From Dehalococcoidia bacterium (GTDB taxonomy: Bacteria > Chloroflexota > Dehalococcoidia > Lucifugimonadales > UBA3495): a stretch of DNA of 64,000 nt. Location: assembly GCA_965203975.1 (NCBI GenBank), contig CBDBDT010000001.1, forward strand, positions 904,029 through 968,028, read 5' to 3'. Position 1 is the first letter of the stretch. Each line of letters starts with the position of its first letter. A program made the translations under genes and the position numbers. Below the pieces are notes generated by a model. The model searched no databases and was not told the origin of the DNA. It saw only the letters and a program-made list of their open reading frames with translations. This document shows, one piece after another, positions 3,341-38,718 of the stretch.

Positions 3341-3346
3341 AGTGCT

Positions 3347-5575
3347 TCACAGCAACGGATGTTGGTTTGTGCGGTGATCGTTCTCTTCCATGGTCTCGCC
3401 ATTGTTGGGCGTGCTTGGGTCTTGGGCATCTTCAATGGCGAACTTGTCCAGTTGGACCGGCACTGTATACGCCTGGGACAGGGTTCTGATTCGGACGAAT
3501 CCCTGCTCGCTGACCTTGCCGATCTGGTCTGTGAAGTCGGCGAAGTCCATGTAGTCCGCCACGAACCGTCTCTCAGTGTTCGAGTTGAGGTAGGAAAGCA
3601 CCCAGTTGTCGGTTTCGGTAAGGATTTCTCGCATAACGGTACTGGGTGCCTGTGTTGCCAGTACCATCCCGATGTTGTATTTGCTGCCTTCCTTCGCCGT
3701 CTTCGCCCACACAGTTTGCAAAGCGTTCCGGGCGTTGGCGTTTGGCAACAGATTGTGAGCTTCCTCGATGTAAACGACGATGTGTCCTTCCGTCGCTTGG
3801 GACTCGTCGGGAGGCTTTGATGGATCATGTCGAGCAAGAGCGCTCCTGAACTTGGCCTGTTGGGACTGGAAGATGCGCCACATGACCCGCTCGGCCGCAG
3901 CTTGGTTTTGCTCCGGCTCTCCTGCTGACTGGTCAATGATGACTAGCTTGCCCTTCTCCAGGTCTTCGACTACGGCTTTGGCAAAGTCGTTCTCGGCTTC
4001 GGGATCGTGTTGCTCGTGCGCGATTTGGAATACCCGTGGACCGTTTGGTGTCCTAAAGATGCTGATTACCGCTTTCAACCGTTGGTCTGCCCAGGGTTCT
4101 CCACTTCCCTTCGGTCGGCTGATGTAAGCGTTCTCGAACGCTTGGTACGCCCCCCTGTTGTCCCTGACGAATTTGTCCAATGCGGTGAACACGGTTTGGA
4201 GCTGTGCCCAAGTGATTCTTCCTTGGGGTTCGTTCGCTCGCTTCAGAATCTCAGCCGCCTGATGGTACTCGGTTCTATTGTCGCTGTGCTCATTTTGGTC
4301 AAGGTCTAAGTGTTTGGTGATTTCTGGCCCGAGAAGGCTCCCTGTTCCACCCACGATCCTAAGTGATGGTTCACGAGGGGGGCGTAGCCCGGCGGCGGCG
4401 AGGGCGGTCTGGTATGCGAGAATCGTCCTTTGGTATCGTACCTGCGCCCCACGGCTGCCCGTGATGTTCTGCGGAACCGATATGTCGGCGTCACGGAATG
4501 CTGTGGTGTAGCGGTCTGTCTCTGCCTCCATGATGTTGTTGATGATCGCCCGGCCAGCCGTCAACTGTTCCAGTACAGCCTCAACTGATTCGAGCGTCAG
4601 TGGTGTCTGGAATGGGTCCCCGAAAAAGTTGAGCTTCATTACTTTGCGTTGTTTATCCCAATCTGGGGGCGGGAGTAAACCGTAAGTGGTTACTTCTGGA
4701 CCCCTAGGCAATCCTATGGTTTCGTGGACTCGATGCAGTCCCTTGCCGTCTTGGTAGGTATCCTGAGCGTATTCGCCGCTGAGGTCGAAGATGACCTGCC
4801 CCACTCGATGTTTGGGGTTGTCCTTGCGAATCTGGTAAATTAGCTCCGCTACAATTTTGAGGCCGTTAGATTTGCCGGAGCGCGACATGCCGAAGTAGGC
4901 GGTACGCCTTTTCAGGATATCTGTCGGGTTGATCCGGAAGTCCGCCCTTGTAACTCCGTCGGGGTCTGCAGCTGCGAACCTGGTGCGGCCTATTTTGGCC
5001 TCTTTCCGGGCGACCGGGATGTCGTTGGTTCGATGTTGGTGATTGACGATTAAGTCCAGCGACTCGGCATCTGGTTTCCACACCATCAGTTCATTGACGG
5101 CATAGTAGTTGGCGATGTCCTCAGCGTAGCGATATGTGCCGTCGTCTCTGGCGATGAAAGTGCCGAGCACCGAGCATTCCAGTCCGTGCAAGGACATTTT
5201 GTCTCTCACCCAATCCGGAAGTCGGTCTGCCCAGGGGCCTTGGTTTCCCGAGTCCTCTATGCTCTCTTGTCGGGTCTGGTCGTTAGCAGCCGCGGCGGGA
5301 AGGCGGGCTTCGCTTTGGATTCTGAGCAGGATGAACGACTCATCCCCTTCCTGGTTAACCTTGGCTGCCATCAGGAATCCATTCTTGGGCAGACCACCCG
5401 CCTGCTCACGGTCGTGGTCGTACACTGCAACAATAGCGTTGGTGTATGAAATGGTGTATACACTGCCGACGAATTTTGCCCGTTCACGGAACGGAGTTCG
5501 CCTGGGTTGTCCAGCACTTTGCTTCAATGATTCCAACAGGGAGGAGTTTTCCTCTGCAGATGTTCCCAGAACCAT
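3347..5575 (-). CDS. herA: HerA/FtsK-superfamily ATPase (DUF87-type)
   Basis: 742 aa with Walker A FGMSRSGKSNG and Walker B-like IVVYIEEAHNLLP. An N-terminal barrel-like segment reads GSVYTISYTNAIVAVYD. The ATQAPS motif is present, and AGGAG lies 10 nt upstream of the ATG. Confidence 0.85.
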   Translation of the reverse strand: MVLGTSAEENSSLLESLKQSAGQPRRTPFRERAKFVGSVYTISYTNAIVAVYDHDREQAGGLPKNGFLMAAKVNQEGDESFILLRIQSEARLPAAAANDQTRQESIEDSGNQGPWADRLPDWVRDKMSLHGLECSVLGTFIARDDGTYRYAEDIANYYAVNELMVWKPDAESLDLIVNHQHRTNDIPVARKEAKIGRTRFAAADPDGVTRADFRINPTDILKRRTAYFGMSRSGKSNGLKIVAELIYQIRKDNPKHRVGQVIFDLSGEYAQDTYQDGKGLHRVHETIGLPRGPEVTTYGLLPPPDWDKQRKVMKLNFFGDPFQTPLTLESVEAVLEQLTAGRAIINNIMEAETDRYTTAFRDADISVPQNITGSRGAQVRYQRTILAYQTALAAAGLRPPREPSLRIVGGTGSLLGPEITKHLDLDQNEHSDNRTEYHQAAEILKRANEPQGRITWAQLQTVFTALDKFVRDNRGAYQAFENAYISRPKGSGEPWADQRLKAVISIFRTPNGPRVFQIAHEQHDPEAENDFAKAVVEDLEKGKLVIIDQSAGEPEQNQAAAERVMWRIFQSQQAKFRSALARHDPSKPPDESQATEGHIVVYIEEAHNLLPNANARNALQTVWAKTAKEGSKYNIGMVLATQAPSTVMREILTETDNWVLSYLNSNTERRFVADYMDFADFTDQIGKVSEQGFVRIRTLSQAYTVPVQLDKFAIEDAQDPSTPNNGETMEENDHRTNQHPLL

Positions 5576-5976
5576 GATGGTCTAACTCCTGAGGTTTGGT
5601 TGCTGGAAGTATAGCAAAGGCGGACTCCCTCTTTGTTGGTTTGTTCAGGAAGGGGCTCCTGAGGGGTCTATGAGTCCATTCACAGAGCTTGACCTGCCCG
5701 TCCCGGGTGGGGGGCAATGCCCTTGGGAAATTGGTATAGTTTAACTACCATCCCGGCCACTGGAGAACTCCCTCCGCAGGCCGGGATTTTCATTGAGGAG
5801 GCTGGTGAAGATCGACCGTCCGGCACTTTCCGGCAACGCCGGAGGACCCTCTGAGGAGTTTGGACGGATGTGACGGAAACCGTAAGCGTGAGCCGGGTTT
5901 GTGAAGAAAACCAGCGTGAAAAATCACCCGAATGGTTGAGTCATGAGTCGGGTTTTGGTACGCTTGTTCGAGAAAA

Positions 5977-6876: not shown

Positions 6877-7198
6877 CACCCAGCTGGGGCCGGTGGTGCT
6901 CTTCGGGACCGGCGGAGTGATGGTGGAAGTCTACAACGACGTGGCGGTGCGGCACTGCCCAATCACAAAGACGGAAGCCCTGGAGATGGTCCACCAAGTC
7001 AAGGGAGTCAAGCTTCTGCAAGGTTTCCGGGGCGCCCCGGAAGCGGACATTGACGCGCTGGCGGACACCCTGGTGCAGGTCTCCCAAATGGCGGTTAACC
7101 TGGAGGGGAAACTGTCGGAGCTGGACATCAACCCCCTGATGGTGCTGCCCAAGGGTCAGGGAGTGAAGGTGGCCGACGCCCTGGCTGTGCTCCAGTAG
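6866..7198 (+). pseudogene. C-terminal remnant of ADP-forming acetyl-CoA synthetase / acyl-CoA synthetase (ATP-grasp part)
   Basis: YDTQLGPVVLFGTGGVMVEVYNDVAVRHCPITKTEALEMV...LLQGFRGAPEADIDAL...LSELDINPLMVL matches only the last ~110 aa of this ~700-aa family. No upstream part is present. Confidence 0.7.
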
Positions 7199-7268
7199 GG
7201 AACGCCTCCCAAGGCCAGCGGAACCGAAGGGAGCGCCGTCAACCGGCACTCCTGTGGCCTGTTGACAT

Positions 7269-7652
7269 TCAGGCCTTTGCTGTAAAGGGCTCCAGCACTG
7301 CCAGGAGTTCCGCCATGCTGGTCAGGTCCTCCCTGATAGCCTCCGGGTCCAGGTCGCCGGCCAGCTCGTAGAAGTTTACGTGCAGGATCTCCGCCCGCCC
7401 ATGCAGGAATGGAAGGCGGTCGTTGCCGCTCAGCCGGCGGGCCTGGTTCATCACCCGGTGGAAGTGGCTGTGCCGGTCGTACTCCCAGCCCTGGACGAGA
7501 GCCACGGCCTTGGCCATGTGGGCGGCCGCGCCCCAGCCCTTCTCGGATGCCTGATGCAGGTCTCCGTCGGCCAGGTGCTGGCCGGCCCTGTCGAGGAACT
7601 CTCGTGCCTGGGTTGTGTGCCTGGCCGCTTCGGTGCTGTTTCCGTTGACCAT
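7269..7652 (-). CDS. PaREP1/HEPN-like helical protein
   Basis: 127 aa. AREFLDRAGQHLADGDLHQASEKGWGAAAHMAKAVA...LHVNFYE resembles the PaREP1/HEPN-like pattern (EK-WGA...KA, LH..FYE). Confidence 0.5.
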   Translation of the reverse strand: MVNGNSTEAARHTTQAREFLDRAGQHLADGDLHQASEKGWGAAAHMAKAVALVQGWEYDRHSHFHRVMNQARRLSGNDRLPFLHGRAEILHVNFYELAGDLDPEAIREDLTSMAELLAVLEPFTAKA

Positions 7653-7696
7653 ATCCTTCTATTGGCCGCTCTTGGCCCGCATGTCAACCGGCGCTC

Positions 7697-8095
7697 CTAG
7701 TCTTTTTCCTGGAGGACCTCGCCGGAAAGGGCGGTCACCCGGTCGACGTGGACCAGGACAGCGGCTCCGGTGCGTTCCGGGTCCCGGTCGAGTTCGCCCT
7801 GAACGGTGCGGGACATGACATTCTCGCGGACCGGGCCGCTCTCGACGACCTCGGCGGTCCCGTGGAACCGCCAGTTAATGCGGCGTTCCGGGTTCCGGTA
7901 GAACACGACAACCTGGGGATTGTCGGTCACGTTTTCCATGGCCGAGCGGCGGGCGCGTTCCCAGTAAGCCAGGGTGGTCGGGTCATATACCAGGACGCTG
8001 CCCTTCATGCTTATCTGGGGCCGCCCCTCGCCGGAGGCGGTGCCCACGATACAGCAGCAGCCATCGGCGAGGGCATTGTCCAACAGTTCCTGCAT
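7697..8095 (-). CDS. Pyridoxamine 5'-phosphate oxidase-family (FMN-binding split barrel) protein
   Basis: The start is moved to ATG 8095-8093 (GGAG upstream). MQELLDNALADGCCCIVGTASGEGRPQISMKGSVLVYD...VVVFYRNPERRINWRFHGTAEVV is typical of the family. The track's upstream extension is low complexity. Confidence 0.75.
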   Translation of the reverse strand: MQELLDNALADGCCCIVGTASGEGRPQISMKGSVLVYDPTTLAYWERARRSAMENVTDNPQVVVFYRNPERRINWRFHGTAEVVESGPVRENVMSRTVQGELDRDPERTGAAVLVHVDRVTALSGEVLQEKD

Positions 8096-8125
8096 TTCTC
8101 CGCTTATGTCAATCAATGTTCCCCC

Positions 8126-8209
8126 GGGCTTTGCACCAAAGCTCAAGCCTGAACCAAAAGTATGATTCAACTTCGAAGTTGAACCAGAACTAGGTGTTGA
8201 ACCAAAAGT
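8126..8209 (+). repeat. Left terminal inverted repeat with subterminal TGAAYCA motif array
   Basis: Terminal 15-mer. 20-mer TGAACCAAAAGTATGATTCA at 8150-8169. Perfect 18-bp palindrome TTCAACTTCGAAGTTGAA at 8166-8183. Further half-sites at 8180-8190 and 8198-8209. Confidence 0.6.
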
Positions 8210-8513
8210 CGGCCTGGTTGGGGCGATAATAGCAGAGATGAAGGCATGGAAGAAGCCCGTCCTGGATGGCAGGACGGGCCAGGTTTTTGTGTGGCATGTG
8301 GTGGGTTCTCTCCCAGGGAGGAGCATTACAATCGCGGTGAGGCTATCCGGAGGTGGTTGACCGATGGAATAAGCTGAGTGGAGCTACGAGGCTCTGCAAG
8401 TTAAACCGGGCGTCAGATTGCTCCTGACGCCCGGTTGGCTTTTGGGGTCTGAAGAGAACTGCCCGGCCGATGCCGGGCAGTTTTCAATTGACAAGAGCTG
8501 TATGAAGAACATC

Positions 8514-8542
8514 TTGACAAAAGGCGTTCCCAATGATAAAAA
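8514..8542 (+). promoter_or_regulatory. Sigma-70-like promoter (TTGACA, 17-nt spacer, extended -10 TGaTAAAAA)
   Basis: TTGACA at 8514-8519, a 17-nt spacer, TG at 8534-8535 and TAAAAA at 8537-8542. It lies in noncoding DNA upstream of two hairpins. Confidence 0.35.
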
Positions 8543-8641
8543 CCCGAACCGCTATTGTCAAAGAGGCGAGTGCAGAAGTTGGAAAACCTGCCTCGCCTCC
8601 TTTGGTTGGGGCGTGGAGTGGGATTAGGTCATGGAGTATTG

Positions 8642-8672
8642 AGGCCCCGGTGCTTCCTCACCGGGGCCTTTT
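8642..8672 (+). terminator. Intrinsic-terminator-like hairpin (last of five in 8255-8672)
   Basis: AGGCCCCGGTG cttcct CACCGGGGCCT followed by TTTT. It has an 11-bp perfect stem. Confidence 0.5.
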
Positions 8673-8686
8673 CGCGGGTTGGGGGG

Positions 8687-8962
8687 TTAGGGGGCTATGG
8701 TTAGAGTTGCGGTTGGGATGGATTGTATCTCGCCCTCGGCTATGTCTAGGGGTGAGAGAAGGTCGCTGGGGGAGATGAGTGAGAAGAGGTCCTTCGGGGA
8801 GGTTGCTCTGATTTGCAGGTGCCCATCGGCCGAGCGGTTGATAGTTAGCATGAGGGTGATACCTTCCCCGTCGTCAAGTGTGTGGGTATATCCTAGGGAC
8901 TGTCGAGCGGATTCGTGCCAACCGTTGACGAGGTCGGATAGCAGTTCCGAGGTGATTTCCAT
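8687..8962 (-). CDS. Hypothetical protein (91 aa)
   Basis: ORF-track entry with no recognisable motif. It sits immediately downstream of the 8986-9276 gene on the same strand. Confidence 0.45.
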   Translation of the reverse strand: MEITSELLSDLVNGWHESARQSLGYTHTLDDGEGITLMLTINRSADGHLQIRATSPKDLFSLISPSDLLSPLDIAEGEIQSIPTATLTIAP

Positions 8963-8985
8963 TGGATTCTCATTGTGGGTTTGGG

Positions 8986-9276
8986 TTAGTGGATAGGGAT
9001 AGCGTATTCAAGTAGGTCTAGGCGGGCGAGCCAGTTGAGGACTCGTAGGGGTAGTTGGCCTGCCCAAGAATTTATGGGGGTTACGAAGAGCGTGTCGTTC
9101 TCGTCGAGAATGTGGAGTAGTGCTTCTACCACTTGCCCGGGGTCCTTGCTGGTGTGGATTGCCCACGAGGATTGTGCGACTCGTATCCACGCTGGATAGG
9201 ATTTGAGTGCGGCGTACAGGTCGGGGTATTTCTGGATGGGGCTATGCAGATCGTAGGTTACTAGGAGTGTATTCAT
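8986..9276 (-). CDS. Hypothetical small protein, possibly Cas2/VapD-like fold
   Basis: The start is moved to ATG 9276-9274 (GGGAGGA upstream). The pattern MNTLLVTYDLHSP...WIRVAQSSWAIHT...DTLFVTPI is reminiscent of small beta-alpha-beta-beta-alpha-beta proteins. This is a weak inference. Confidence 0.45.
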   Translation of the reverse strand: MNTLLVTYDLHSPIQKYPDLYAALKSYPAWIRVAQSSWAIHTSKDPGQVVEALLHILDENDTLFVTPINSWAGQLPLRVLNWLARLDLLEYAIPIH

Positions 9277-9842
9277 CTCCTGGGTCCTCCCTGTGGTCTC
9301 TTTACAGTATGCGGGTCGCGGCTCTTCCAACTCGGGCAATTCTCCGAGCCATGCGGGTAGCTGGGCTGTTAGAGAGCGGGCGAGGCGGGTTAGCTGCGCG
9401 TCTTCGGCTAGTTGGTGGAGTGCGGCGTCCGCGACGCCGAAGAGGGGAGGGTTTTTTGCGGGGAGTGGACATGGTCAACCTCTCTTGGCTCCCCTGAAGC
9501 GAGGGGCGAGAGCTTGACGCGACCGGGTTGTTCTGTGTTAGGGTAACCCCGGCCCCATGTAACTCGCCTGATCAGCGCAGGGGGCTGTTTCGGATTTGGC
9601 CCGCAGTTGTGGCTGCGGGCCTTTCCCATGGTACCCGGAAATTTTGCCCCGTTCAAGTTATGAGAGGCAAGTGCATTTGGTCTGTTAACCTGGCGACCTG
9701 CCCTTGGCGTGGAACCTGGCGGAAAAAATCCGACTTTTGGTTCCGCTTATTGACCCTGTCAGTCCGAGAGTGGCACTTGGCCGCAAACGTCGTAGAGCGG
9801 CGGTCGCGGCGCTTGCGGATGGAGCCTCGGGCGGCGGGTTAC

Positions 9843-10334
9843 CTACCCGTGAGAATTCACATCTAACGAGAACTTCAACCTGCGGCCTTTGTATGCCCTT
9901 CCAGTCCCTGTGCATACGCGAGGCCAAACTGTAACGTTCTCCCTTTGTCCGACTGTTATGTCAAAGTCATTCAAACATTTACATAGGGTTTGGGCGGGAA
10001 AGTACCAATCTTCCTGACTCCCTGAACGGATAGTCGCTGGTAGTTCAGGGTGGGAACGAGGGGGTGGGGCAGCCATGAGAAGGGGGAACCCCCAATTCCG
10101 GGCGAACATAACACGGATGTCTTCGACTTCGACATCCACTCTGTCTACATTCCTGATGGTTACTTTCAGAGCATTCTCCGGAAAGCCATATTGCCTAGTT
10201 ATTCTGCCGCGTTCCTCCAATATCTGAATTTTAATGCTTGGACGATAGTGTCTGTAGTACCATGTTCCAATTAAGGATATTACGGCGGTTAACGCACCTA
10301 CGGCTAAACTAATTTCGGTGACCAATGATGGCAT
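9843..10334 (-). CDS. Membrane-anchored hypothetical protein
   Basis: ATG at 10334 follows GGGAGAAGG. An N-terminal TM helix reads SLVTEISLAVGALTAVISLIGTWYY. GC is low (a 60-nt spot count gave about 42 percent). Confidence 0.55.
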   Translation of the reverse strand: MPSLVTEISLAVGALTAVISLIGTWYYRHYRPSIKIQILEERGRITRQYGFPENALKVTIRNVDRVDVEVEDIRVMFARNWGFPLLMAAPPPRSHPELPATIRSGSQEDWYFPAQTLCKCLNDFDITVGQRENVTVWPRVCTGTGRAYKGRRLKFSLDVNSHG

Positions 10335-10355
10335 CCTTCTCCCTGACAATCTCCC

Positions 10356-10616
10356 CTACGGAAACTCCTGCACCACCGCCACATGCTCGGCCAGGGCGAT
10401 GCCCTTGGCGACGTCGGAGCGGTAGGCGGGCGGGATGTCGGCCTGGATGACGATCTGCGCCGCCGAGAGGTGGGCAATCGGGGTGGCGAGGATGATGCCG
10501 AACAGGTGGATGGTCACCAGGGCCTTCCCGCTGGCCTTGCCCCGGTCGTACATCTCCCGCAGCCGCCCCTCCAGCTCAGCCGTCCATTCCCGGAGGGTTT
10601 GGGGGTGGGTGGTCAT
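10356..10616 (-). CDS. Hypothetical soluble protein (86 aa)
   Basis: ATGA overlap (10616-10613) with the upstream small membrane ORF. Confidence 0.5.
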   Translation of the reverse strand: MTTHPQTLREWTAELEGRLREMYDRGKASGKALVTIHLFGIILATPIAHLSAAQIVIQADIPPAYRSDVAKGIALAEHVAVVQEFP

Positions 10617-10822
10617 GGGTCAGGTCTTGCGCCAGCCAGCCAGAACCCTTCGGAGAGAAAATAGGTGTAGGCGCATGCAAGGACCCCTGCCCCCGTGGAT
10701 AAGACTTGTTTTGTTAACAAGCCGGAAGTCCCAACATCGGTCGGCAGAGCGCAGAAACACCACACGCCACAGCCCGCCCCGACGGCAATAACAACCGCCA
10801 TTCTTACGTCTTCTACAATCAT
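10613..10822 (-). CDS. Small two-TM membrane protein (69 aa with the shorter start)
   Basis: ATG at 10822 is preceded by GAGGAAG. Hydrophobic stretches are MAVVIAVGAGCGVWCFCAL and GAGVLACAYTYFL. The longer track start (10927) would overlap the upstream gene by 70 nt. Confidence 0.4.
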   Translation of the reverse strand: MIVEDVRMAVVIAVGAGCGVWCFCALPTDVGTSGLLTKQVLSTGAGVLACAYTYFLSEGFWLAGARPDP

Positions 10823-10856
10823 TGTGTCTTCCTCAGACAGATCCTCTACGACAGTT

Positions 10857-11201
10857 TCAGCGGATTTCCCTCGTCGTATCGCCAATACGTCTCCCATTCG
10901 GCACACCTGGGCCGAGTACGTCCTCAACAGGACCTCCTCCCACTATGACCGGAGGGCGTGTAGGGTCAAGTTTGTCGAATATTGCTACCAACAGCAACGC
11001 CGAAGCACCGGATATAACTGCGAAAGGAATCGCAACGGCTTTCAAAGACTCTGGAACCCAAGGAAGGAACACGGACACGGCGGTGAGCACCGCGATACCT
11101 TCCCCTGCAATCATGATCCACTCCCTCAAGGGCCGCATCCGTGCAAAGAACACTTGAACCTTAGTGCGTCTCATGAATGAGGACAAACCCGATAGTGGCA
11201 T
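10857..11201 (-). CDS. Two-TM membrane protein (114 aa)
   Basis: Hydrophobic segments are WIMIAGEGIAVLTAVSVFLPWV and AVAIPFAVISGASALLLVAIF. It starts 9 nt after the HNH pseudogene stop. Confidence 0.5.
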   Translation of the reverse strand: MPLSGLSSFMRRTKVQVFFARMRPLREWIMIAGEGIAVLTAVSVFLPWVPESLKAVAIPFAVISGASALLLVAIFDKLDPTRPPVIVGGGPVEDVLGPGVPNGRRIGDTTREIR

Positions 11202-11210
11202 GATTTCTCC

Positions 11211-11638
11211 TTAACCCACGATCTCCGCCAGCCGGGCTACCAGGTACTCCTGGGGGCGATCGCCCTTGAGGGAGTTGCAGGCCCCGCAGAGGAGCTGGAG
11301 GTTCTCGATGTGGTCCGTCCCACCTCGGCTCTGGGGATGATATGATCCACGGTGAAGTTGCGGAAGGGGAACATCACCCGGCATCCGGAGCACAGCGCTT
11401 CCTGCTGCCCGAAGAGGACGTGCTTGTTCTGGTGGTAGTTGACCGGGGCCTCGATGTCCGTCCGCCGGGGGATGTCGGTGGCGGCCTGCGACGCTTCCCG
11501 GTAGGTCTTGTAGTCCTCCCGGAGATGATCACCCATCTCCCGAAGTGCTTGCGTTCCAGGTCCTCCTGCATGAGGGCGTCGGCCCTGACCTGGTTCAGCG
11601 GAGGATGCTCGAACTTAACAATGTCCTTCAACCTGCCT
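11211..11638 (-). pseudogene. HNH endonuclease pseudogene (two 1-nt frameshifts; 5' end severed by IS1)
   Basis: Three consecutive frames carry ...FEHPPLNQVRADALMQEDLERKHFG / GDHLREDYKTY...CSGCRVMFPFRNFTVDHIIP / SRGGTDHIENLQLLCGACNSLKGDRP. The original ATG at 12526-12524 is in frame across the IS once one TSD copy is removed. Confidence 0.7.
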
Positions 11639-11717
11639 CTCTTCTCGGTATTCCCGACGTGTGTTGGTGTAGGGTTTAGAATAGTGGGCGGTAGCGAGAG
11701 TTGTATGGCAGTGAGGT

Positions 11718-12041
11718 GTGGTGATGGCTCAACCCAGGGTTTATCGAGACGGGATGCAATGTCCCAGGTGTGGTTCGAACTGGCTTCCCAAGCACGGCAA
11801 GTCCCGGGGCAAGCAGAGATACCGCTGCCAGCAATGCCTTTACCACTTCACCCTTGATGCCGAGCATCCCCACCAGCCCGAGCGAGTGAAGAACATGGCT
11901 GTGGCCATGTATGCCGAGGGCAACAGCATTGAGGCCATCGGCCGGATGTTGGGTATGAAAGCCGGGACAGTCTACTCCTGGGTCAAAAAAAGCCTGCCAA
12001 GCCCGGAATCTGTTGCGGATCGTGGTCGAGCAGCGCAGTGA
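11718..12041 (+). CDS. insA: IS1 InsA-like protein (zinc finger plus HTH)
   Basis: CPRCGS...YRCQQC zinc-finger pattern and an HTH-like segment NSIEAIGRMLGMKAGTVYSWVKK. Confidence 0.85.
   Translation: MVMAQPRVYRDGMQCPRCGSNWLPKHGKSRGKQRYRCQQCLYHFTLDAEHPHQPERVKNMAVAMYAEGNSIEAIGRMLGMKAGTVYSWVKKSLPSPESVADRGRAAQ
11985..11991 (+). promoter_or_regulatory. A7 slippery run in the insA/insB overlap
   Basis: gtcAAAAAAAgc lies inside the 11959-12041 frame-overlap window. Confidence 0.6.
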
Positions 12042-12468
12042 CCGCAGCCGGGGACGGGGGTTGCCCAGGGTCATATCCTTCGATGAGATGTGGAGCTACG
12101 TTGGAGCGCGGCGTCGGGAAAAACGCCGGGAGTGCTGGGTGTGGACGGCGGTAGTGGAGGAGGCTGACGGACGGAAGTGGGTGGACTTTGAGGTGGGAGA
12201 CCGCTCCGAGGCCACCTTCTTGCGTCTCTATGGGCGGTTGCCTGAAGCGGAGAGGTATCGCACGGACGCCTACCAAGTGTACGGATGGCTGCCGCGGGAC
12301 CGGCACGAGGTGGGCAAGGGCAGCGAGGTGAACCGGAACGAGGGACTGCATTCCCGTTTAAGGGACAAGTTGAACCGTCTTCACCGCCGGACCAAGGGCT
12401 ACAGCAAGAGCATGACCATGCTCAGCGACTCCATTGCCTTGGTCTGCGTAACTCTGAAACTGACCTAA
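12013..12468 (+). CDS. insB: IS1 InsB-like DDE transposase part
   Basis: VISFDEMWSYVG...CWVWTAV...YRTDAYQVY...NEGLHSRLRDKLNRLHRRTKGYSKS is typical of IS1 InsB. The frame is open from 11959. Confidence 0.85.
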   Translation: MRIVVEQRSDRSRGRGLPRVISFDEMWSYVGARRREKRRECWVWTAVVEEADGRKWVDFEVGDRSEATFLRLYGRLPEAERYRTDAYQVYGWLPRDRHEVGKGSEVNRNEGLHSRLRDKLNRLHRRTKGYSKSMTMLSDSIALVCVTLKLT

Positions 12469-12522
12469 CACCAACACACGTCGGGAATACCCTCTTCTCC
12501 TTGAGTCCCCCCTCGTCTCCGT

Positions 12523-13527
12523 TCATCCGATCTCTCCAATCCGCGCACGTTCCACGGCTTGGCGTGCTGCGCGGAGGAGTCCCTCTTTGTTGGCCATTTT
12601 CTGACTCTGGTGCCTTTCGTCCTGTTCCCGGAGTTGAGTCTGCATGGCGTACCAGTCATCCGAGACTCTTGTGTCTCGTGTTCTTGGTGTCCACTTGATC
12701 GCCAGCATCCGGGACTTTTCTAGGGAATCTCCGGTTCGTCCGTATAGGAAGCGGCAGTTGGATTCGTGGTAGTAGTCGCGGTTTAGGGTTAGGGCTTTTT
12801 CGTTATCTATGACTGGTCCCTTTTCGAGCAGGTTCTTCTTGGTCACCCAAAGGTATACCAAGAGGCACTTGCTGTTGATGGGAAGAATGACTTGGCTACC
12901 CGGATTCCGGAGATCGCGGTCTCCTCCCACCGAGGTTCGCACGGCCAGAACCGGTGAGTCACCGATTATGAACGATCCATCTTGGGTCGCGTAGTTCGCC
13001 GTCAATCCCATGGATCCCAAGACGGTCAGGATACCGTTGTCTTCCCCGTCGAACAGCAGCTTGAGATAGTCGTGGGTGAGTCGTTCGTCCACGAACTCTT
13101 TGGTGTCTTGTTCGTTGACTAGGCCCCCAGAGGACATGAACGCATCTGTCAATTCTCCGGCGGTAGATGCGATGATTTCTTCCCTCACATTGGCTTTGTC
13201 AATCCCGTTGTAAGGGTCGTTTATCAACATCGCGGCGACTAACCGGTCGAGGGATTTTCGTTCCCTCCGGGTTATCGAAGTGGTTCCCTTCCTGATCTTT
13301 TCGATGACGGGGGTTGCGTCCTGTTCGATGCTTCTCATCAGCCCATCGTCTGCGTCGGTCAGAAGTCTTTGCTTTGAAGCTACTTCAGAAACCTTGCAAA
13401 CCTCTATTGTTCCCGTGGTCTTGTCCAATCGGAGGACCCGGCTGGCTTTCCCTTTCAAGCCAAACCCTTTCAGAAGGAACTGGGGAGTCCAGTGTTGGTT
13501 AGTGTCGTTCCAAGTGCTCGGCTGCAT
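12523..13527 (-). CDS. DUF4238-like protein
   Basis: 334 aa. The N-terminal QHWTPQFLLKGF matches the H-x-P-x-F-L-L/K-x-F signature I associate with DUF4238. Its stop forms an ATGA overlap with the original HNH start (12526-12523). Confidence 0.6.
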   Translation of the reverse strand: MQPSTWNDTNQHWTPQFLLKGFGLKGKASRVLRLDKTTGTIEVCKVSEVASKQRLLTDADDGLMRSIEQDATPVIEKIRKGTTSITRRERKSLDRLVAAMLINDPYNGIDKANVREEIIASTAGELTDAFMSSGGLVNEQDTKEFVDERLTHDYLKLLFDGEDNGILTVLGSMGLTANYATQDGSFIIGDSPVLAVRTSVGGDRDLRNPGSQVILPINSKCLLVYLWVTKKNLLEKGPVIDNEKALTLNRDYYHESNCRFLYGRTGDSLEKSRMLAIKWTPRTRDTRVSDDWYAMQTQLREQDERHQSQKMANKEGLLRAARQAVERARIGEIG

Positions 13528-13538
13528 CTCTCAACCTA

Positions 13539-14084
13539 TCAACTTCGAGAGGTCTGGGGCATGGTGGCGTCGTCCCGGTCTCCGTAGACCACCAGCTCCC
13601 CATCCTCCCAGTATGCCATCCCGTCCACCACCTCCACCGTCTCCACGCTCACCCGGCACACCCGCCCCAGCAGGTCTATCACCCGCTCCTTGTGGTCGGA
13701 GAAGCGATAGGTGTTGAACCGCTCCCGGATGGTCGGGTCCCGGGGCTTACGTTCCTTGTACTGGTCCAGCACCCACTCCAGCGCCGACCGGCTCCCCAGC
13801 CGGTACTCCCACGCCTTCGCCGGAACGCCGGACAGCGTCGTCCGCTCGTCCAGCGTAATCGTCCCCCGTTCCTTGTCCGCCCGCAGGATGGTCCGCTTCG
13901 GTTCGACATCCTCTCTGTCCACCCGCTCCAGCTGATACGGCTCCACCGACTCGAACCCGACGTGCAGGTCCAGCAGCCGCTGCCCCATCTCCGCCCAGCG
14001 GTGGAAGTCCTGGTAGAAGGGCAGCCTCGGAAACTCCCGCAGCAGGTCCACCGCGTACTCCTGCAGGGAGCCCAATCCTGGCAC
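13539..14084 (-). pseudogene. C-terminal fragment of a type IIG (MmeI/type ISP-like) restriction-modification enzyme
   Basis: LSGVPAKAWEYRLGSRSALEWVLDQYKERKPRDPTI resembles the C-terminal specificity-domain tail of type ISP/IIG enzymes. No methyltransferase motif IV lies upstream. Confidence 0.6.
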
Positions 14085-14264
14085 AACGTCACTCGCTCGT
14101 TCTTGGTTGGGTTGGGCTAATGCAGGGTAAAATAAATGGGGAGGGCGATGCTAAGTCCTTCGGCGGGCCCCATGTTGACGCAAAACGGACGGTGCGCCTA
14201 CCATAAGCCACCTGTCGTCCGGTCGTCAGGCCATACAGACTTTTTCGGTAATCAAGAGGTGGAT

Positions 14265-14558
14265 ATGCCAGAGCCTTTCGAGATTTTTGCCGACGCGTTT
14301 ACCGTGACGGTAGGCGCTTGGGGATCTAGTATGAGCTTCCAATTGCGAGAGGCCCATCCAGAAGCAACGTCGATTAAGCAACCAGAACGTCTGGGCACTG
14401 TAAGGATGAGTACCGAGCACCTAAAAGCCATGGTCTTTATACTCAGACGACAAGTACTACAATATGAGCAATCTCAGGGGGTGAAGTGTGATGTGCCCAC
14501 ACAAGTCTTGGCACAGATGCAGATTCCCCGAGAAGATTGGGATGTCTTTTGGAGTTAA
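14265..14558 (+). CDS. DUF3467-like small protein
   Basis: ATG at 14265 follows AAGAGGTGGA. FADAFTVTVGAWGSSMSFQLRE...VRMSTEHLKAMVFILRRQVLQYEQ fits my recollection of DUF3467. GC is low. Confidence 0.5.
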   Translation: MPEPFEIFADAFTVTVGAWGSSMSFQLREAHPEATSIKQPERLGTVRMSTEHLKAMVFILRRQVLQYEQSQGVKCDVPTQVLAQMQIPREDWDVFWS

Positions 14559-14571
14559 GGAGGAGGTTGTA

Positions 14572-15042
14572 ATGGCTGCCGCAGGGACCATAAAGTTCAC
14601 GGATTCGGAATCCATCACCACCGAGTCTTCCGATTTTAGCTGTCGTAACTTCGCCGAGGAAACTTTGCTGCAGACTAGCAAAGTCGCGGTCGTAGGCGTA
14701 GGCACAATTTCCTCAGGTTTCTCGGGGTACACTTTTGATGTCTTGCTATGTGACAAATTCAAAACACTGGCGGAGCGTTGGAAGGCAGAGACCATTCATA
14801 TATCATCGTTGTCGGATATAGAGAGCCACAGTGCATACCAAGAAATCATCAGCATGGGGCAAGCGGTAGTCCCATTGATCCTCTGGGAACTGGTCATTGA
14901 CCCAGATTGGTGGTTCATGGCCCTGGATTCGTTGGTGGACACGCCACCTCCTCTGGAAGGGGACGACGGGGACTTAATGAGATTGAGCGCGAAGTGGGTC
15001 GATTGGGGCGAATCCAATGGCTACCTCCCCTCGACCCAATAA
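14572..15042 (+). CDS. Hypothetical protein (156 aa)
   Basis: ATG at 14572 follows a strong RBS, AAGGAGGAGG (14557-14566), placed just after the upstream stop. No motif was recognised. Confidence 0.55.
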   Translation: MAAAGTIKFTDSESITTESSDFSCRNFAEETLLQTSKVAVVGVGTISSGFSGYTFDVLLCDKFKTLAERWKAETIHISSLSDIESHSAYQEIISMGQAVVPLILWELVIDPDWWFMALDSLVDTPPPLEGDDGDLMRLSAKWVDWGESNGYLPSTQ

Positions 15043-15460
15043 CGTATTCGGTCTCTTTGATCAACTCAAAGGCTTTCGCGTTACGAGTCCGCGTACCCGC
15101 ATATACAATTGTATAGCTTGGGCGGCAGGAAGCGACAATGCTTGGTGGTGGCCACAAGGGCAACGTTCCTACTGGCCTCTGACAAAAAAGAGCTCGGAAG
15201 ACGTTCCGACATTTGAGGCCGCCTTTCGGACGCTTGGGTATGAACCATGCGCGGACGGTGACTTGGAGCAAGACGTCGAGAAAGTTGCCATATATGTCAA
15301 AGACGGGAAAGTAAAGCATATGGCACGCCAAGTCCCCAGCGGTTGGTGGACCAGCAAACTTGGAGCAGCAGAAGATATTGAGCATGAGAGCCCCGCCGAG
15401 TTGGAAGGGAAAGAATACGGGCAGGTAATGCGTTATATGGGCCGCCAACGGTCGGCCTGA
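15017..15460 (+). CDS. Hypothetical protein with YNCIAWAAG motif (possible cysteine hydrolase)
   Basis: 147 aa. An N-C dipeptide in RIYNCIAWAAG with downstream His residues loosely recalls papain-like/NlpC-type hydrolases. This is weak. Confidence 0.5.
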   Translation: MATSPRPNNVFGLFDQLKGFRVTSPRTRIYNCIAWAAGSDNAWWWPQGQRSYWPLTKKSSEDVPTFEAAFRTLGYEPCADGDLEQDVEKVAIYVKDGKVKHMARQVPSGWWTSKLGAAEDIEHESPAELEGKEYGQVMRYMGRQRSA

Positions 15461-15587
15461 TCTTCGGGCAGGCCGACCTAGCCTCAGAGAATTTAAGGGA
15501 CTAGAAGACTCTCCAGCCCTTCTTTTTCGAAAACAATACCTACCTACCTCAACCTTGAGGGCGATTTGATTACAGGTTCTATCCCTG

Positions 15588-16733
15588 CTAGACCATGGGC
15601 ACCGACAACCCCGACCTTGATGTACCGGGGTCGACGGGCAGGTAATTGATCAGGTTGGTGACGAAGGTCCCCGTCCCCGTCGCCGGGTCCAGGATCTGCA
15701 CGTTCTCATCCGCCAGCGTCTTCCCGAAGTGCTTCTCCAGCAGGTAGTCCGCCCCCCGGATGATGAAGTCCACCACCTCGTTGGGCGTGTACACCACCCT
15801 CAGCCGGTCCGCCGCCGCCGGGTTGTACGCCGTGTAGAAGTCCTCGTAGATGGCCTTGAGGAACTGCTGCTTCTCCCCGTAGTCGGCGATCTCGTCCGCC
15901 GCCCGCCCGATGACCCCGTAGTAGGCCCGCAGCCGCTCGATGGCCTCCCGCCGCACGTCGCCGGTGAAGAAGGTCCGCTCCAGCCCGTCCAGCTGCCGCG
16001 CCACGTTGTTCTCCCGGTGGAACTGGTCCTCGGCGAACACCCGCAGGAAGATATCCTTGGTCAGGATGTGCTGCAGCAGCATCTCCCGCACGTCCGCCGA
16101 TGAGACCGCCGGCCCGATGGTCTTCCGGCACAGGTCCAGGAAGGATGCCGCCGCTTCCTGGTACTCCGGGTTCTCCTCCTCTGCTTCCGCCACCGTCGCG
16201 CGCAGGTTCTCCAGCACCGCCGGCAGGTCCGCCTTGAACTGGCCCTGGGCCTGCCGGAACTCCTGGATCTCCGGCAGCTCGTAGTCGAGAAACACCCGGA
16301 TCAGCCGGTGCAGCTCCCCGTCCCGGGACATGTCCACCCGCATCGCCTCGCTGCCGTTCTGCACCAGCACCGCCGTCTGCGAGTCCTCGAAGATGATGTT
16401 GTCCCTGGGGTAGCCCCGGTTGAACTTGGCCTGTATCTCGGCCTCCAGGTCGTCGTGGCTGTCCTTCGCCTCCCAGTACCCCCGCGCCATCCGCAGCGAG
16501 TCCTTCACCGTTCCGTCGGGGCGGTTGCTGTGCGCCGCGCTCAGCTCGTCCACCAGGGCCAGCTTCTCCCGGTGGTCCCGGCAGTACGAGTCCAGGCACA
16601 CCGCAAAGGCCCGCCGGATGCTCTGCTCGTTGTCCGACCCGCCGAACTCGATGAACCGCTCCAGGTCGGCGTGATACTGCTCAATGTGCGGGTAAGAAGG
16701 CATAACCCGATTATACTCCAGCCCGCTCTCCAT
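15588..16733 (-). pseudogene. N-terminal fragment of a type IIG (MmeI-like) restriction-modification enzyme
   Basis: PD-(D/E)xK-like RPDGTVKD...GYWEAKD, then the methyltransferase lead-in VYTPNEVVDFIIRGADYLL and SAM motif I ILDPATGTGTFV. Homology stops right after motif I. Confidence 0.7.
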
Positions 16734-16986
16734 CCCCGCCCCGCATACAGCATTGAACGCGGTTCTTCCAGAAAAGCGTTCTTGTCGTCCGAGAGCCCCT
16801 CGCTGTTGCAGCCGGTTCCGTCTACGCCGGATTGACTACGTTCAACCAGGCTCTCGGCCTCCGGTGTCACCGTCAGGCTGACTTCGGCCGGTTCGCGGGC
16901 TTGGGAGGCTCAACATGGGGACCGTGAAGAACATGTAGGGCGCTGGGCGGGTGGGTTAGCTGGTTTCGCTGGGCCTGGCTTTGAGC

Positions 16987-17068
16987 TTGAACCAAAAGTA
17001 CCTTCTGAATCATTAGTCGGAAGCTGAATCAAAAGTATGGTTCAAATTGTGGTTTTGGTGCAAAGCCG
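16987..17068 (-). repeat. Right terminal inverted repeat with subterminal TGAAYCA motif array
   Basis: Terminal 15-mer at 17054-17068. 20-mer TGAATCAAAAGTATGGTTCA at 17025-17044. Half-sites at 17006-17017 and 16987-17000. Confidence 0.6.
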
Positions 17069-17360
17069 TTCCCCCACATATCCACCGCCGGCCGACTCTC
17101 GGGGCCGTTACCCTGAGAAGGGAACGGAGGATCGGCCGAGCGTGGCCGCCGGCAACGGTGGCCAGACTGAATATAGTATAATGCGCTGGATTTCCCGAAA
17201 GCCGTCCTACGCCTTCAACCGGTTGAAACCGGAGTCCCGGAGGCGTCGGCGCGAGGCGTAACAGTTACGAATACCGGCCGATTCTAGACCACCGGTTTCC
17301 GGTTGGCAACGACAGCGGCGCCAGTACCGGGGCCAGTCCAGCGTACACTAGGAGCAGGCA

Positions 17361-20300
17361 GTGTCCCAAGCGATTGAAATTCACGACCTACCCCAATCCG
17401 GCCAGTTGCAGGTTGTCTACCGAAAGCCGGATGCCACCCTCGAAGCCCCTCCTTCAGAATTCTCCAACCCGCTGGAACCATCCGACCACCGGGAGCTCGA
17501 CTGGTACTTCCGCGAGTACGCGGACCAGCCCTTCGGCCCCAGCCAGGCCCGTTCGGAGGCGGTGGAGACCGGGCTGAGAAACCTGGGACGGGTGCTGTTC
17601 GAATCAACGTTCAACGCCAACCCGGAAGCGTCCGCCATCTACGCCCAGGCTTCCGGGGACGGCCTCGGGGAAACCCGGCTGGAGATCGTTTCCTCCCGGC
17701 GGGAATTCCTTACCCTGCCCTGGGAACTACTGAACGAGACGGAAGCTGGGTATGCGGCCACCCAGATGGCCAGTGTCATCCGCCGCAGTCCAACCGGAGC
17801 CGCCGGTGAATTCGACCCGGAACTGCCAACGGACCAGCTCAACGTCCTGCTCATCGCCCCGCGTCCATCGTTGGATAACGGCCTTTTCCGGGGCGGGTTG
17901 GCCTCCGAGACCGCCGTTGCCCTGGAGGGCCTGGAGGTGCAGGCCGAGCTGGAATACGTCAGCCCGCCCGGTTTCCAGGGGCTGACCGATGCCCTGGAAA
18001 ACAACCCCAGGTATTACCACGTTGTCCAACTCGACGGAATCACGGCAGGTGATGAACCCGGGACAATAATCCTGGAAACCGGCGCAGGACCGGAGCCGGT
18101 GCCGACAGCCCAACTGGGCCAAACACTTGAATCGGCGCAGGTGCCGGTGGCGTTCCTCACCGGGGCCGAAGGCGACCATCAGGAAACTTGGGGCACGCTG
18201 GCGGAAGCGGCCTCGGACCTGGCGGAGCACGGGGTGCCGGTGGTGGTGTGCCTCCCATATCAGCTGGCGGACTCGGCCAGCCGGGAAATGTTTGTCCGCC
18301 AGTTCTACCAGTCCCTGGCGGGCGGCATGGATGTCGCAGCCAGCGCGGCCACGGCGCGAAACGCCCTGATGGAATCGCCGGTGCGGGTGATTTTGTCCGG
18401 CAAGCAGGTGATGTGGGACTGGGTTGCGCCGGTCACGTTCCAGTCCCGGGAATATTCTCCCAAGGCTATCGAAGGGGAGGCGCCCGACCCATTGGCCCCG
18501 CCGATGCTCCAACCCCAACAGCAGGATGTGAACGTAGAGATGCAGCTGCCCGCCGCCGGGGCCTTCGGCCTGGTGGGCCGGCAGGGAGAACTGCACCGGC
18601 TGGAGCGAATGTTCACCGAGTCGCCCGCGGTGATGCTGACCGGTCCGACCGGGGGCGGCAAGACGGAGCTCTGCCTGGGCCTGGCCAGGTGGTTCCAAAG
18701 GATTGGCAGGAAACAGCGGCCTGGCGGGGTGTTCTACACGACCTTCGAGGCGTCCCACCCGTCGGGGCTGGAGCGAATAGTACACGAAATCGGGACGAGC
18801 GTGGCGGGTCTGGAGTTTCCCGATTTGAGCCTGGACCAGCAGCGGCAGTGGGTGGTGGAGTACCTGCAGCAGCACCCTTCCCTGCTTATCTGGGACAACG
18901 TGGAGAACGCGGCGGGTTTTCCGTCAGGATCGCCCGGGCTGCTGGAACCGGAGGAACTTAGAGGACTGAACGAGTTCATCGCCAGCGTGACGGGTGAGGG
19001 ACAAAGCTGGGTCCTGCTGGCTACCCGGCGGGATGGGGAAAACTGGCTGTCCGTCCCCCATCAAACCATGACCCTGCCCGGCCTGCAGGGCGGCGACCGC
19101 AAGGAGCTGGCCGCCGCGATACTTTCCCAGGCCGGCGTTGAGCCGGGACGGTTGTCCCCGGAAGTAGTGGATGTCATCGACTTCGTCGAGGGCAACCCGC
19201 TGGGGATGAAGATCGTGCTGCCGCGATTGAAGGACGTCCCGGCCACGGCACTGCTGGCCGAACTCCAGCGGACGCTGGAGAGCCTTCCTGAATCGGCCCT
19301 GGAAGAAGGCAGGCTGCCGTCGCTGACGGCGACGATGGAATTTTCATGGGGAAAGATGTCCCGCCGGAGCCGGACCCACCTCCCCTTCCTTGCCCTGTTC
19401 CAGCGCCGGGTGATGATGGACATTGTGAACCACATGACTGGCGAAGCCGGGTACAAGGGAGCCATGGGCGAGGAACTGGGTTGGGGAGCGACCCGGACGC
19501 TGCTGCGGACGGGGCTGGCCGATGGCTTCCTGGAAGGAGTGTCTCCCAGCGTGTACCAGATTCATCCGGCGCTGCCCTGGTTCTACGGGCGCAAGCTGGG
19601 ACAGCAGGTGGCGACGGCCCGGCTGGGCGACCTGGAACAGGAGTACGTGCGGGTCTACGCGGACACGGCGGACTACTTCATGGAGTCCCTCTACGAAAAC
19701 CAGGACGCGGGAGTGACGGCAATCCTCGCGGAGGAGGGCAATCTGACCCAGGCTCTGGGCCTGGCCCTGGAGGCCCGTCATTGGGACAACGCTCAGCTCC
19801 TGGTCCAGCCGCTGGCCCAGGTCTACCGGATGCAGAAGCGTTTCGCGGAACTGCGTCGCTTGCGGCGGCAGTTGCTGGAAGTTGTCGGCGTGACGGCGGA
19901 GGAAGCGGCATCCAATGCTGCCGAGGAGTTCTGGACCTACCTGCTGGGAACGGAAGCCAGCGAGTCGGTGGATGTGGGAGACCTGGAGTACGCCGAGGAC
20001 CTGAACCGCCAGCTGTACGACTACCTTTCCGGCCTGGAGGGAAGCTCCGAGGACCCCAGGGTGGCGGCGGTATCCCACCAATTCGGGCAGATTGCCCTGC
20101 GCAGGTTCCGGCTGGACGAGGCGGCAGGCTGGTTCGAGCAGTCCCTGGGAATTATCGAGAACGGGGAGGACCAGGCCTCGGTGGCCGACGATTACTTCGC
20201 GTTGGGACAGGTCAAGCAGCACCAGCGCTACTACACCGAGGCCAAGGAGCTGTATCAGAAAGCCCTGGACATCCACCAGCGTCTCCCCGACGAGGAGGAG

Positions 20301-38621: not shown

Positions 38622-38718
38622 GGGAGTGGATGGGGCCCGGTGGCTCTTGCGGTCTTCAAAACCGTTATGCCTCGTGAAGAGCGGGGTAGGTGGGTTCGAC
38701 TCCCTCGCACTCCCGCCA
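38622..38718 (+). tRNA. selC: tRNA-Sec (anticodon UCA)
   Basis: Hand-folded. The acceptor is GGGAGTG/CACTCCC plus GCCA. The D-stem is 6 bp with the 4-nt loop CGGT. The anticodon loop is CTTCAAA with TCA at 38656-38658. The variable arm has a 7-bp stem. The T-loop is GGGTTCGACTCCC. One mismatch each is tolerated in the T stem and the 8th acceptor pair. Confidence 0.85.

Follow-up and report, generated by a model that had tools for sequence, protein, structure and literature searches.

Six open reading frames (ORFs) stand head to tail on the minus strand between positions 9843 and 13527 of a contig from a Dehalococcoidia bacterium, with gaps of only 0-34 nt between them, and they raise the question of whether they form one functional unit. 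The whole stretch of DNA analysed here, hereafter the window, is 64,000 nt long. An earlier reading of the same DNA (the original prediction) saw in these ORFs a nuclease-plus-membrane-effector defence cassette that had been inactivated three times over. We arrive at a different answer, to which we assign a probability of roughly 0.68: the six genes are a patchwork of separately acquired genes in a decaying, insertion sequence (IS)-rich defence island, and not one functional operon. In what follows, g1 is the DUF4238 gene, g2 is the HNH frame, and g3 to g6 are the downstream ORFs in transcript order, whereas L-numbers denote DNA loci of relatives that were compared with the window. The parts of the cluster are as follows.

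12523..13527, minus strand: g1, an intact DUF4238 gene of 334 amino acids (aa), assigned by Pfam PF14022
11472..12526, minus strand: g2 5' module, interrupted by IS1 into 12526-12492 and 11646-11472, the counterpart of a small ORF found after DUF4238 in sister loci
11647..12491, plus strand: IS1-family insertion sequence of 845 bp, identified by inverted repeats, target duplication and NCBIfam
11211..11479, minus strand: g2 3' module, an HNH nuclease tail, identified by homology to a methyltransferase-HNH fusion family and by Pfam
10857..11201, minus strand: g3, an orphan ORF of 114 aa with two membrane helices predicted from hydropathy
10613..10822, minus strand: g4, an orphan ORF of 69 aa (104 aa from TTG 10927) with one or two membrane helices predicted from hydropathy
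10356..10616, minus strand: g5, an 86-aa HTH_73 (PF24718) protein, assigned by Pfam at 54 bits
9843..10334, minus strand: g6, a protein of 163 aa with an N-terminal membrane helix and a predicted Ig-like beta-sandwich domain, from hydropathy, AlphaFold and Foldseek

The junctions between these ORFs are as originally described, each having been re-read in the sequence. The g1 stop and g2 start share an ATGA overlap (12526-12523), and the g2 stop (TAA, 11213-11211) is followed after 9 nt, with GGAG inside, by the g3 ATG at 11201. A gap of 34 nt lies between the g3 stop (10859-10857) and the g4 ATG at 10822, g4 and g5 share a second ATGA overlap (10616-10613), and the g5 stop (10358-10356) is 21 nt from the g6 ATG at 10334. 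Such tight spacing probably makes co-transcription of the six genes possible; it is not a mark of shared function. Promoter and terminator counts are no higher than in shuffled sequence, and positions 7000-18000 contain no match to a non-coding RNA in Rfam.

The six genes do not travel together. We read 23 places with a DUF4238 gene (given as L001-L010, L012-L017 and L024-L028), in which the relatives of g1 have 26-72% identity; L011, whose match extends over 95 residues only, is not counted. When these places were searched by tblastn with all six products, g3 to g6 and the HNH domain were found in none of the 23. The sample is modest, the alignment scans having low pattern-based recall and contributing 11 genome loci and 3 metagenome loci. 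Beyond DUF4238 itself, the sole shared part is the 5' module of g2, which is present in three related sister loci. Relatives of g6 occur at six places, always as g6 alone beside transposase genes and accompanied by none of g1 to g5. There is accordingly no conserved gene order in these other genomes, where just the g2 5' module recurs, in three related lineages.

Nucleotide composition leads in the same direction. The guanine-plus-cytosine (GC) content at third codon positions is 0.64 in g1, 0.83-0.89 in g2, 0.55 in g3, 0.57 in g4, 0.93 in g5 and 0.48 in g6, and host genes range from 0.78 to 0.94. These abrupt swings between neighbouring genes indicate separate origins, and the mosaic is not as expected of a unit that is inherited together. 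The proposal that the six genes are one unit founders on this mosaic and on the lack of co-occurrence at the DUF4238 and g6 places, an outcome that the original prediction had itself named as refuting it. If they nevertheless formed one defence or abortive-infection cassette, DUF4238 would sense infection, the HNH protein would cut DNA and the small membrane proteins would kill or arrest the cell, and the host would have disarmed the whole as toxic. Tight same-strand packing with two ATGA overlaps, the defence-island setting and three lesions in the nuclease gene are compatible with such a cassette, as is the independent interruption of the equivalent ORF in L014 by an IS630-type element. Besides the missing co-occurrence at 23 DUF4238 and six g6 places and the third-position GC mosaic, it has to contend with an HNH part that is apparently a recent graft from a methyltransferase-HNH gene and with a g6 protein that carries no effector-like features. 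Nor do the six products match any PADLOC model of such a system, the hits being generic HNH matches for g2 and a weak match for g5 (E = 0.021). We therefore regard a six-gene cassette as very improbable. The case also holds a caution, in that unrelated genes in a patchwork can come to be closely spaced and to overlap at their start and stop codons, and packing alone proves no unit.

In the patchwork that we favour, g1 would be the live part, defending alone. The assignment to DUF4238 made in the original prediction is borne out by a match to Pfam PF14022 (E = 2.4e-14, 53.9 bits against a cut-off of 27) that spans profile positions 1-279 of 281, which is the full length. There are 131 homologues, mostly ~330-350 aa long, all but two of which carry PF14022, and every invariant column of their alignment is retained in g1. 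The ratio of nonsynonymous to synonymous substitution rates (dN/dS) against five relatives is 0.09-0.28, and g1 is thus under purifying selection. Judged by its sequence, it would be alone in the cluster in being both clearly functional and conserved. Its relatives come almost exclusively from Dehalococcoidia and SAR202 metagenome-assembled genomes. No model in PADLOC-DB 2.0 matches g1 at E <= 0.1, tblastn produced no match in the phage collection, and among plasmids only one copy was matched, at 23% identity. By these searches, g1 is a very distant member of the DUF4238 family.

An AlphaFold model of g1, built from 39 sequences, has a mean predicted local distance difference test (pLDDT) score of 77.5. 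Comparison of this model with the PDB by Foldseek gave no match below E = 1, and a profile search of PDB sequences with g1 was empty. A fold-derived mechanism for DUF4238 was dropped on these grounds, although the model is usable. In a viral structure library, the model has one clear match (E = 3e-7), namely V9IQH5, an uncharacterised protein of Stenotrophomonas phage Smp131, a P2-like phage.

The downstream neighbours of DUF4238 change from locus to locus. They are an 8xMP membrane protein in L004, a CBS protein in L001 and a second DUF4238 gene in L010, whereas three loci carry retropepsin-like genes, discussed below, and at other loci there are resolvase fragments or no gene is close by. 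The neighbourhoods of these relatives include XamI and Eco57I-type restriction-modification, Kiwa, Mrr and TIR genes. Such changing neighbours fit a stand-alone defence gene, and g1 probably acts alone, in defence.

DUF4238 has been described as a single-gene anti-phage system of P2-like prophage hotspots that protects E. coli against T7 and whose molecular function is unknown (Rousset et al. 2022, PMC9122126). In further systems of E. coli, DUF4238 is found together with TIR domains (PMC11350192), and the single-gene system was named Rst_DUF4238 in a 2024 preprint. Like this system, g1 consists of essentially one full-length DUF4238 domain and sits among defence genes, and its fold model matches the Smp131 protein. 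It differs in being very distant in sequence, in its Dehalococcoidia-type host and in its location, which is not a P2-like prophage or P4-like satellite hotspot and has no phage genes around it. Instead, g1 lies in an island that is bounded by repeats and flanked by a PNPOx-like gene and a CHAT-AAA-TPR gene. The firmest positive result is this very divergent, intact DUF4238 gene under purifying selection, which widens the range of the defence family to a Dehalococcoidia-type genome. DUF4238 had also been named, subject to checking, as a component of Dazbog (DzbA/DzbB), and this identification was rejected: Dazbog is credited with DUF262 in a review (PMC10952713), Pfam finds no DUF262 in the six products, and no PADLOC model, including those of Dazbog, matches g1. 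The only likeness between Dazbog and the cluster is that both occur in defence islands. The assignment is corrected accordingly, with DUF4238 belonging to the single-gene system of P2-like prophage hotspots.

The HNH gene g2 would be a dead chimera, in which the first ~55 codons are those of a small ORF that trails DUF4238 and the sequence from codon ~65 is a methyltransferase-HNH tail. The protein encoded by the 5' module reads MKDIVKFEHP...DYKTYREASQAAT. At the nucleotide level, positions 11614-11472 share 90% identity with the ORF that comes behind DUF4238 in L027 (2567-2711) and L028, and the module is 86% identical to L014 7029-7114. L014 shares the same ATGA overlap between DUF4238 and the ORF and the same first 39 codons, after which it is cut by the IS630-type element. 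In L027 and L028 the small ORF ends short without an HNH domain and a retropepsin-like aspartic protease comes next. The DUF4238 proteins of these loci are 71% (L014) and 70% (L027 and L028) identical to g1. In the 3' module, the last ~90 residues have 65-85% aa identity to the C-terminal HNH tails of proteins that combine PF01555 with HNH, the homology beginning at TDIPRRTDIE and running to the C-terminus, and positions 11479-11235 are 78% identical to L029 5430-5675 at the nucleotide level with a single 1-nt gap.

The two homologies meet at the sequence ACCGACAT (11479-11472). Because the L027 homology ends and the L029 HNH-tail homology starts there, g2 is a chimera of the DUF4238-trailing small ORF and an HNH tail, apparently joined by recombination at this point. 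The HNH domain is accordingly not an ancestral partner of DUF4238, and the pairing of the two in one defence cassette, as first proposed, is not supported, the tail having been grafted onto another small ORF. The donor family, beta-class N4/N6 DNA methyltransferase-HNH fusions (PF01555 + PF01844), is abundant in Chloroflexota metagenome assemblies. The g2 tail resembles it in sequence and keeps all invariant Cys, His and Asn positions. However, g2 is not itself such a fusion: it has no PF01555 (N6_N4_Mtase) match in the Pfam search and so lacks the methyltransferase domain, its N-terminus is foreign, and it carries two frameshifts and an IS. L029 (2707-5705) carries a full methyltransferase-HNH gene of the donor family, which an IS66-family insertion interrupts in turn, and it seems common in these genomes for defence-type genes to be disrupted by IS elements. 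A candidate identity of the 5' module as a DUF5678-like protein, DUF5678 being a family often paired with retropepsin-like proteases, was dropped when Pfam gave no hit at E <= 1.

Three lesions inactivate g2, namely the IS1 element and two 1-nt deletions. The IS begins 35 nt past the g2 ATG at 12526, as originally reported, and the element, its inverted repeats and its duplication have all been located. Of the 29 positions in its terminal inverted repeats (GGTATTCCCGACGTGTGTTGGTGT), 27 match, and the insertion is flanked by a target duplication of 8 bp, CTCTTCTC, at 11639-11646 and 12492-12499. On the plus strand, overlapping InsA-like and InsB-like ORFs match positions 1-81 and 93-199 of the NCBIfam model transpos_IS1 at 72.4 and 71.5 bits, and an IS1/IS1595 zinc-binding domain is also found. 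The element therefore has the InsA/InsB-type transposase, terminal inverted repeats and 8-9-bp target duplication of the IS1 family. It resembles other members in its two overlapping InsA/InsB-type ORFs, N-terminal zinc-binding domain, terminal inverted repeats of 24-29 bp and 8-bp duplication, but at 845 bp is slightly longer than classical IS1, which measures 768 bp. Each ORF scores under the NCBIfam full-length cut-off because the match is divided between two frames. If the true g2 start is instead the TTG at 11631, whose counterpart is ATG in L014 and L027, then IS1 sits 15 nt upstream of g2 and not within it.

Once IS1 and one copy of the duplication are removed, the g2 reading frame passes from 0 to 2 to 1, and the frame of high third-position GC switches alike. 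DNA alignments to relatives place the frameshifts, both 1-nt deletions, at ~11517-11521 in the 5' module (CCGGGAGG) and at 11334/11333 in the 3' module (ATCATCCC^CAGAGC). Frame reading, third-position GC and alignments thus agree on the two single-base frameshifts of the original prediction. The reconstruction that it had suggested, in which one base is also added at each site, gives a continuous 154-codon ORF reading ...CSGC...DHIIPQSRGGTDHIENLQLLCGACN..., with a complete HNH motif. The repaired protein has the beta-beta-alpha-metal motif (DH...N...N/H) with two CxxC zinc-binding pairs that is expected of an HNH endonuclease, and Pfam agrees with HNH and HNH_5 matches at 52 bits. The gene as it stands has no uninterrupted reading frame, given the two frame switches and IS1.

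Both frameshifts fall at short homopolymers, and the contigs of the relatives are low-coverage long-read assemblies, so that assembly error is possible. If both frameshifts were such errors, g2 read from TTG 11631 or ATG 11536 would be an intact small HNH nuclease downstream of IS1, and g2 to g6 may still be expressed. The sites are indeed short runs of G or C, many genes are split in the related contigs, which are long-read assemblies at 3-12x, all HNH catalytic and zinc-binding residues are preserved, and the alternative start has counterparts in L014 and L027. However, the runs measure only 3-4 bases, and long host genes of 500-1227 codons elsewhere in the window show no breaks. L027 and L028, an independent assembly, also agree on a frameshift of their own at the same site, and IS1 would in any case still separate g2 from the g1 transcript and start. 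We consider this explanation unlikely.

The damage extends beyond g2. A type IIG restriction-modification gene directly upstream of g1 has lost its middle, and the pair of repeats that surrounds both genes may mark the ends of a mobile segment.

13539..14084, minus strand: C-terminal fragment of a type IIG/ISP restriction-modification gene, from Pfam and PADLOC
15588..16733, minus strand: N-terminal fragment of the same type IIG gene, from PADLOC and Pfam
8127..8174, plus strand: left arm of a 48-nt imperfect terminal inverted repeat (GGCTTTGCACCAAA...), from a repeat search
17020..17067, minus strand: right arm of the same 48-nt imperfect terminal inverted repeat, from a repeat search

The stop of the C-terminal fragment and the g1 start are 11 nt apart, and the fragment matches Pfam Type_ISP_C (E = 3e-32) and positions 862-1012 of 1024 in the PADLOC model REase_MTase_IIG (PDLC03621). 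The N-terminal fragment matches positions 6-361 of PDLC03621 (E = 6e-106) and Pfam ISP_coupler and N6_Mtase. Profile positions 362-861 (~500 codons) are missing, and 1.5 kb of low-GC DNA (14089-15588) is in their place. The gap holds three ORFs on the plus strand (14136-15460) that overlap or abut one another, with lengths of 140, 184 and 147 aa; the last encodes a clear DUF7689 protein (E = 4.5e-41) and the other two have no family match. The type IIG gene is split in L014 as well, into fragments at 3186-3656 and about 5348-5871 that enclose a different filler, a D12-class methyltransferase and a 241-aa ORF. The order of type IIG fragment, DUF4238 and g2 5' module is common to the window and L014. 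The C-side type IIG breakpoint is also the same in both, and the decay of the restriction gene is therefore older than the split of the two lineages. Downstream of the cluster are a type II methyltransferase and a HerA-like ATPase, and the CHAT-AAA-TPR protein is on the other side. With the type IIG remnant, the methyltransferase and the HerA-like ATPase so close by, the defence-island setting that had been proposed is upheld.

The surroundings also bear on the idea of a cassette disarmed three times. Inactivation of the HNH gene by IS1 and two frameshifts stands, but a targeted disarming does not follow, as all lesions are in g2 and DUF4238 is intact. Moreover, the type IIG gene has also lost its middle, and general island decay therefore accounts equally well for the damage to g2. 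In the patchwork reading, the lesions in g2 and in the type IIG gene would reflect general erosion together with IS traffic in the island.

The region from 8127 to 17067 looks like a candidate ~8.94-kb low-GC cargo segment that was inserted as a unit, and the separately acquired genes would be packed head to tail within the cargo of this ~8.9-kb repeat-bounded segment. Both arms of the inverted repeat start with GGCTTTGCACCAAA, an exact 14-mer that is found at these two sites only in the 64-kb window. A direct repeat, GTTCCCCC, abuts both outer ends (8118-8125 and 17068-17075), and there are subterminal TGAACCAAAAGT-like repeats. A similar repeat end is found in L017 (11261-11225), 4.2 kb downstream of a DUF4238 relative, and a second end of that element was not found within 13 kb. 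Viral contigs gave a single hit to the terminal-repeat motif, which falls within the coding sequence of an unrelated phage of low GC content and was set aside as a chance match.

Several observations weigh against the patchwork reading. A single strand, gaps of 0-34 nt and two ATGA overlaps are normally the usual sign of an operon. The bounded segment rests on one repeat pair, has no transposase of its own and is matched by no empty site among the sequences compared. A conserved module of g3 to g5 may exist elsewhere. Finally, three lineages (the window, L014 and L027/L028) have the g2 5' module coupled to DUF4238, and the small ORF is damaged differently in each: by IS1 and a frameshift in the window, by an IS630-type insertion in L014, and by a lost start and a frameshift in L027/L028. 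Such separate damage may reflect selection against a harmful partner and not neutral decay.

This last observation is part of the case for another explanation, in which DUF4238 is one half of a two-part module. The other half, a partner encoded downstream, would be exchangeable, coupled to DUF4238 in translation and costly, and so would have been knocked out repeatedly. In L027 this partner would consist of the small ORF and a retropepsin-like protease; L012 and L013 would have a retropepsin-like protein in its place, and the window the HNH graft. Genes for retropepsin-like aspartic proteases with a DTG motif lie directly downstream of DUF4238 at 7055-7558 in L012, 4600-5526 in L013 and 2856-3275 in L027, that is, in three of the seven loci of the ~70%-identity DUF4238 clade, and in L012 and L013 their ATG overlaps the DUF4238 stop (ATGGATAG). 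Start/stop overlaps with DUF4238 are thus present in these two loci and, as ATGA, in the window and L014, and each of the three lineages with the partner ORF carries it in damaged form. On the other hand, what lies downstream of more distant DUF4238 relatives is unrelated (CBS, 8xMP, a resolvase or a second DUF4238), or there is no gene close by, and the published system is a single gene (PMC9122126). The window, L014 and L027 also share ancestry, so that their associations are not independent.

Nor does the small ORF seem to be under constraint. In the small sample of 39 codons that could be compared, the g2 5' module has a dN/dS of ~0.94, and by this estimate it appears to be free of purifying selection. 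In L027/L028, a frameshift is found at the same G-rich spot as the first g2 frameshift (~2655-2668 in L027) with the opposite sign, +1 compared with -1 in the window. The shared spot may be prone to mutation in an ORF that is decaying, or the same sequencing artefact may have recurred there. As a separate observation, the small ORF after DUF4238 is more conserved in DNA (86-90%) than DUF4238 itself (77-79%).

On balance, we judge a two-part module to be quite unlikely. A bolder form of the idea, that DUF4238 of the Chloroflexota clade has an exchangeable overlapping partner which is a self-harming effector and which every lineage seen has inactivated independently, is at least as doubtful; if true, hosts would tolerate this effector only briefly. 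A looser link between DUF4238 and retropepsin-like genes within the ~70%-identity clade is possible. This association and the repeat-bounded 8.9-kb segment are possible leads if confirmed on more genomes.

In the patchwork reading, g3 to g6 would be neighbours of g1 and not its partners. Profile searches, which gave family assignments to g1 (DUF4238) and g2 (HNH) as anticipated and added HTH_73 for g5, assign no family to g3 or g4. Hydropathy, an AlphaFold model and composition agree with the earlier description of three of the four downstream products (g3, g4 and g6) as small, low-GC membrane ORFs, with GC contents of 0.55, 0.56 and 0.48, respectively, compared with ~0.65 for host genes. Their proposed role as membrane effectors found no such agreement, as none of the three bears an effector mark and the beta-sandwich of g6 lacks a catalytic signature.

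Hydropathy peaks of g3 are at residues 28-46 and 56-74. Its sequence has no match in Pfam, PADLOC, NCBIfam, PHROGs, viral contigs or plasmids, and g4 has none in Pfam, PADLOC, NCBIfam, PHROGs or plasmids. Both form singleton clusters in a public collection, where g3 is called as a gene. A stretch of 71 nt (10857-10927) is open for both g3 and g4, in different frames, and together the two could represent one frameshifted protein of ~190 aa with four membrane helices. The g5 product is predicted to be a small DNA-binding-type protein, and the composition of its gene is host-like. It has 49 representative homologues, mostly 70-100 aa long, and no match in viral contigs; elsewhere, its HTH_73 domain is fused to HNH_2, NOV_C, DUF6615 and PaREP1.

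The AlphaFold model of g6 (pLDDT 78.7) has a helix at residues 2-29, and Foldseek relates it to ApaG-like and archaeal-pilin-like beta-sandwiches (E about 3e-4). With only these generic folds matched, g6 was rejected as an effector candidate. At the cluster level it has only three homologues, with 40-58% identity. Two small minus-strand ORFs (8986-9339 and 8687-8962) lie between g6 and the left inverted repeat, parted from g6 by ~500 nt of apparently non-coding DNA with strong positive GC skew (9340-9842). The 117-aa member of this pair of ORFs matches PHROG 1090, a family of unknown function (E = 3e-21). Elsewhere, the sole tRNA in the window is a tRNA-Sec with anticodon TCA on the plus strand at 38622-38718.

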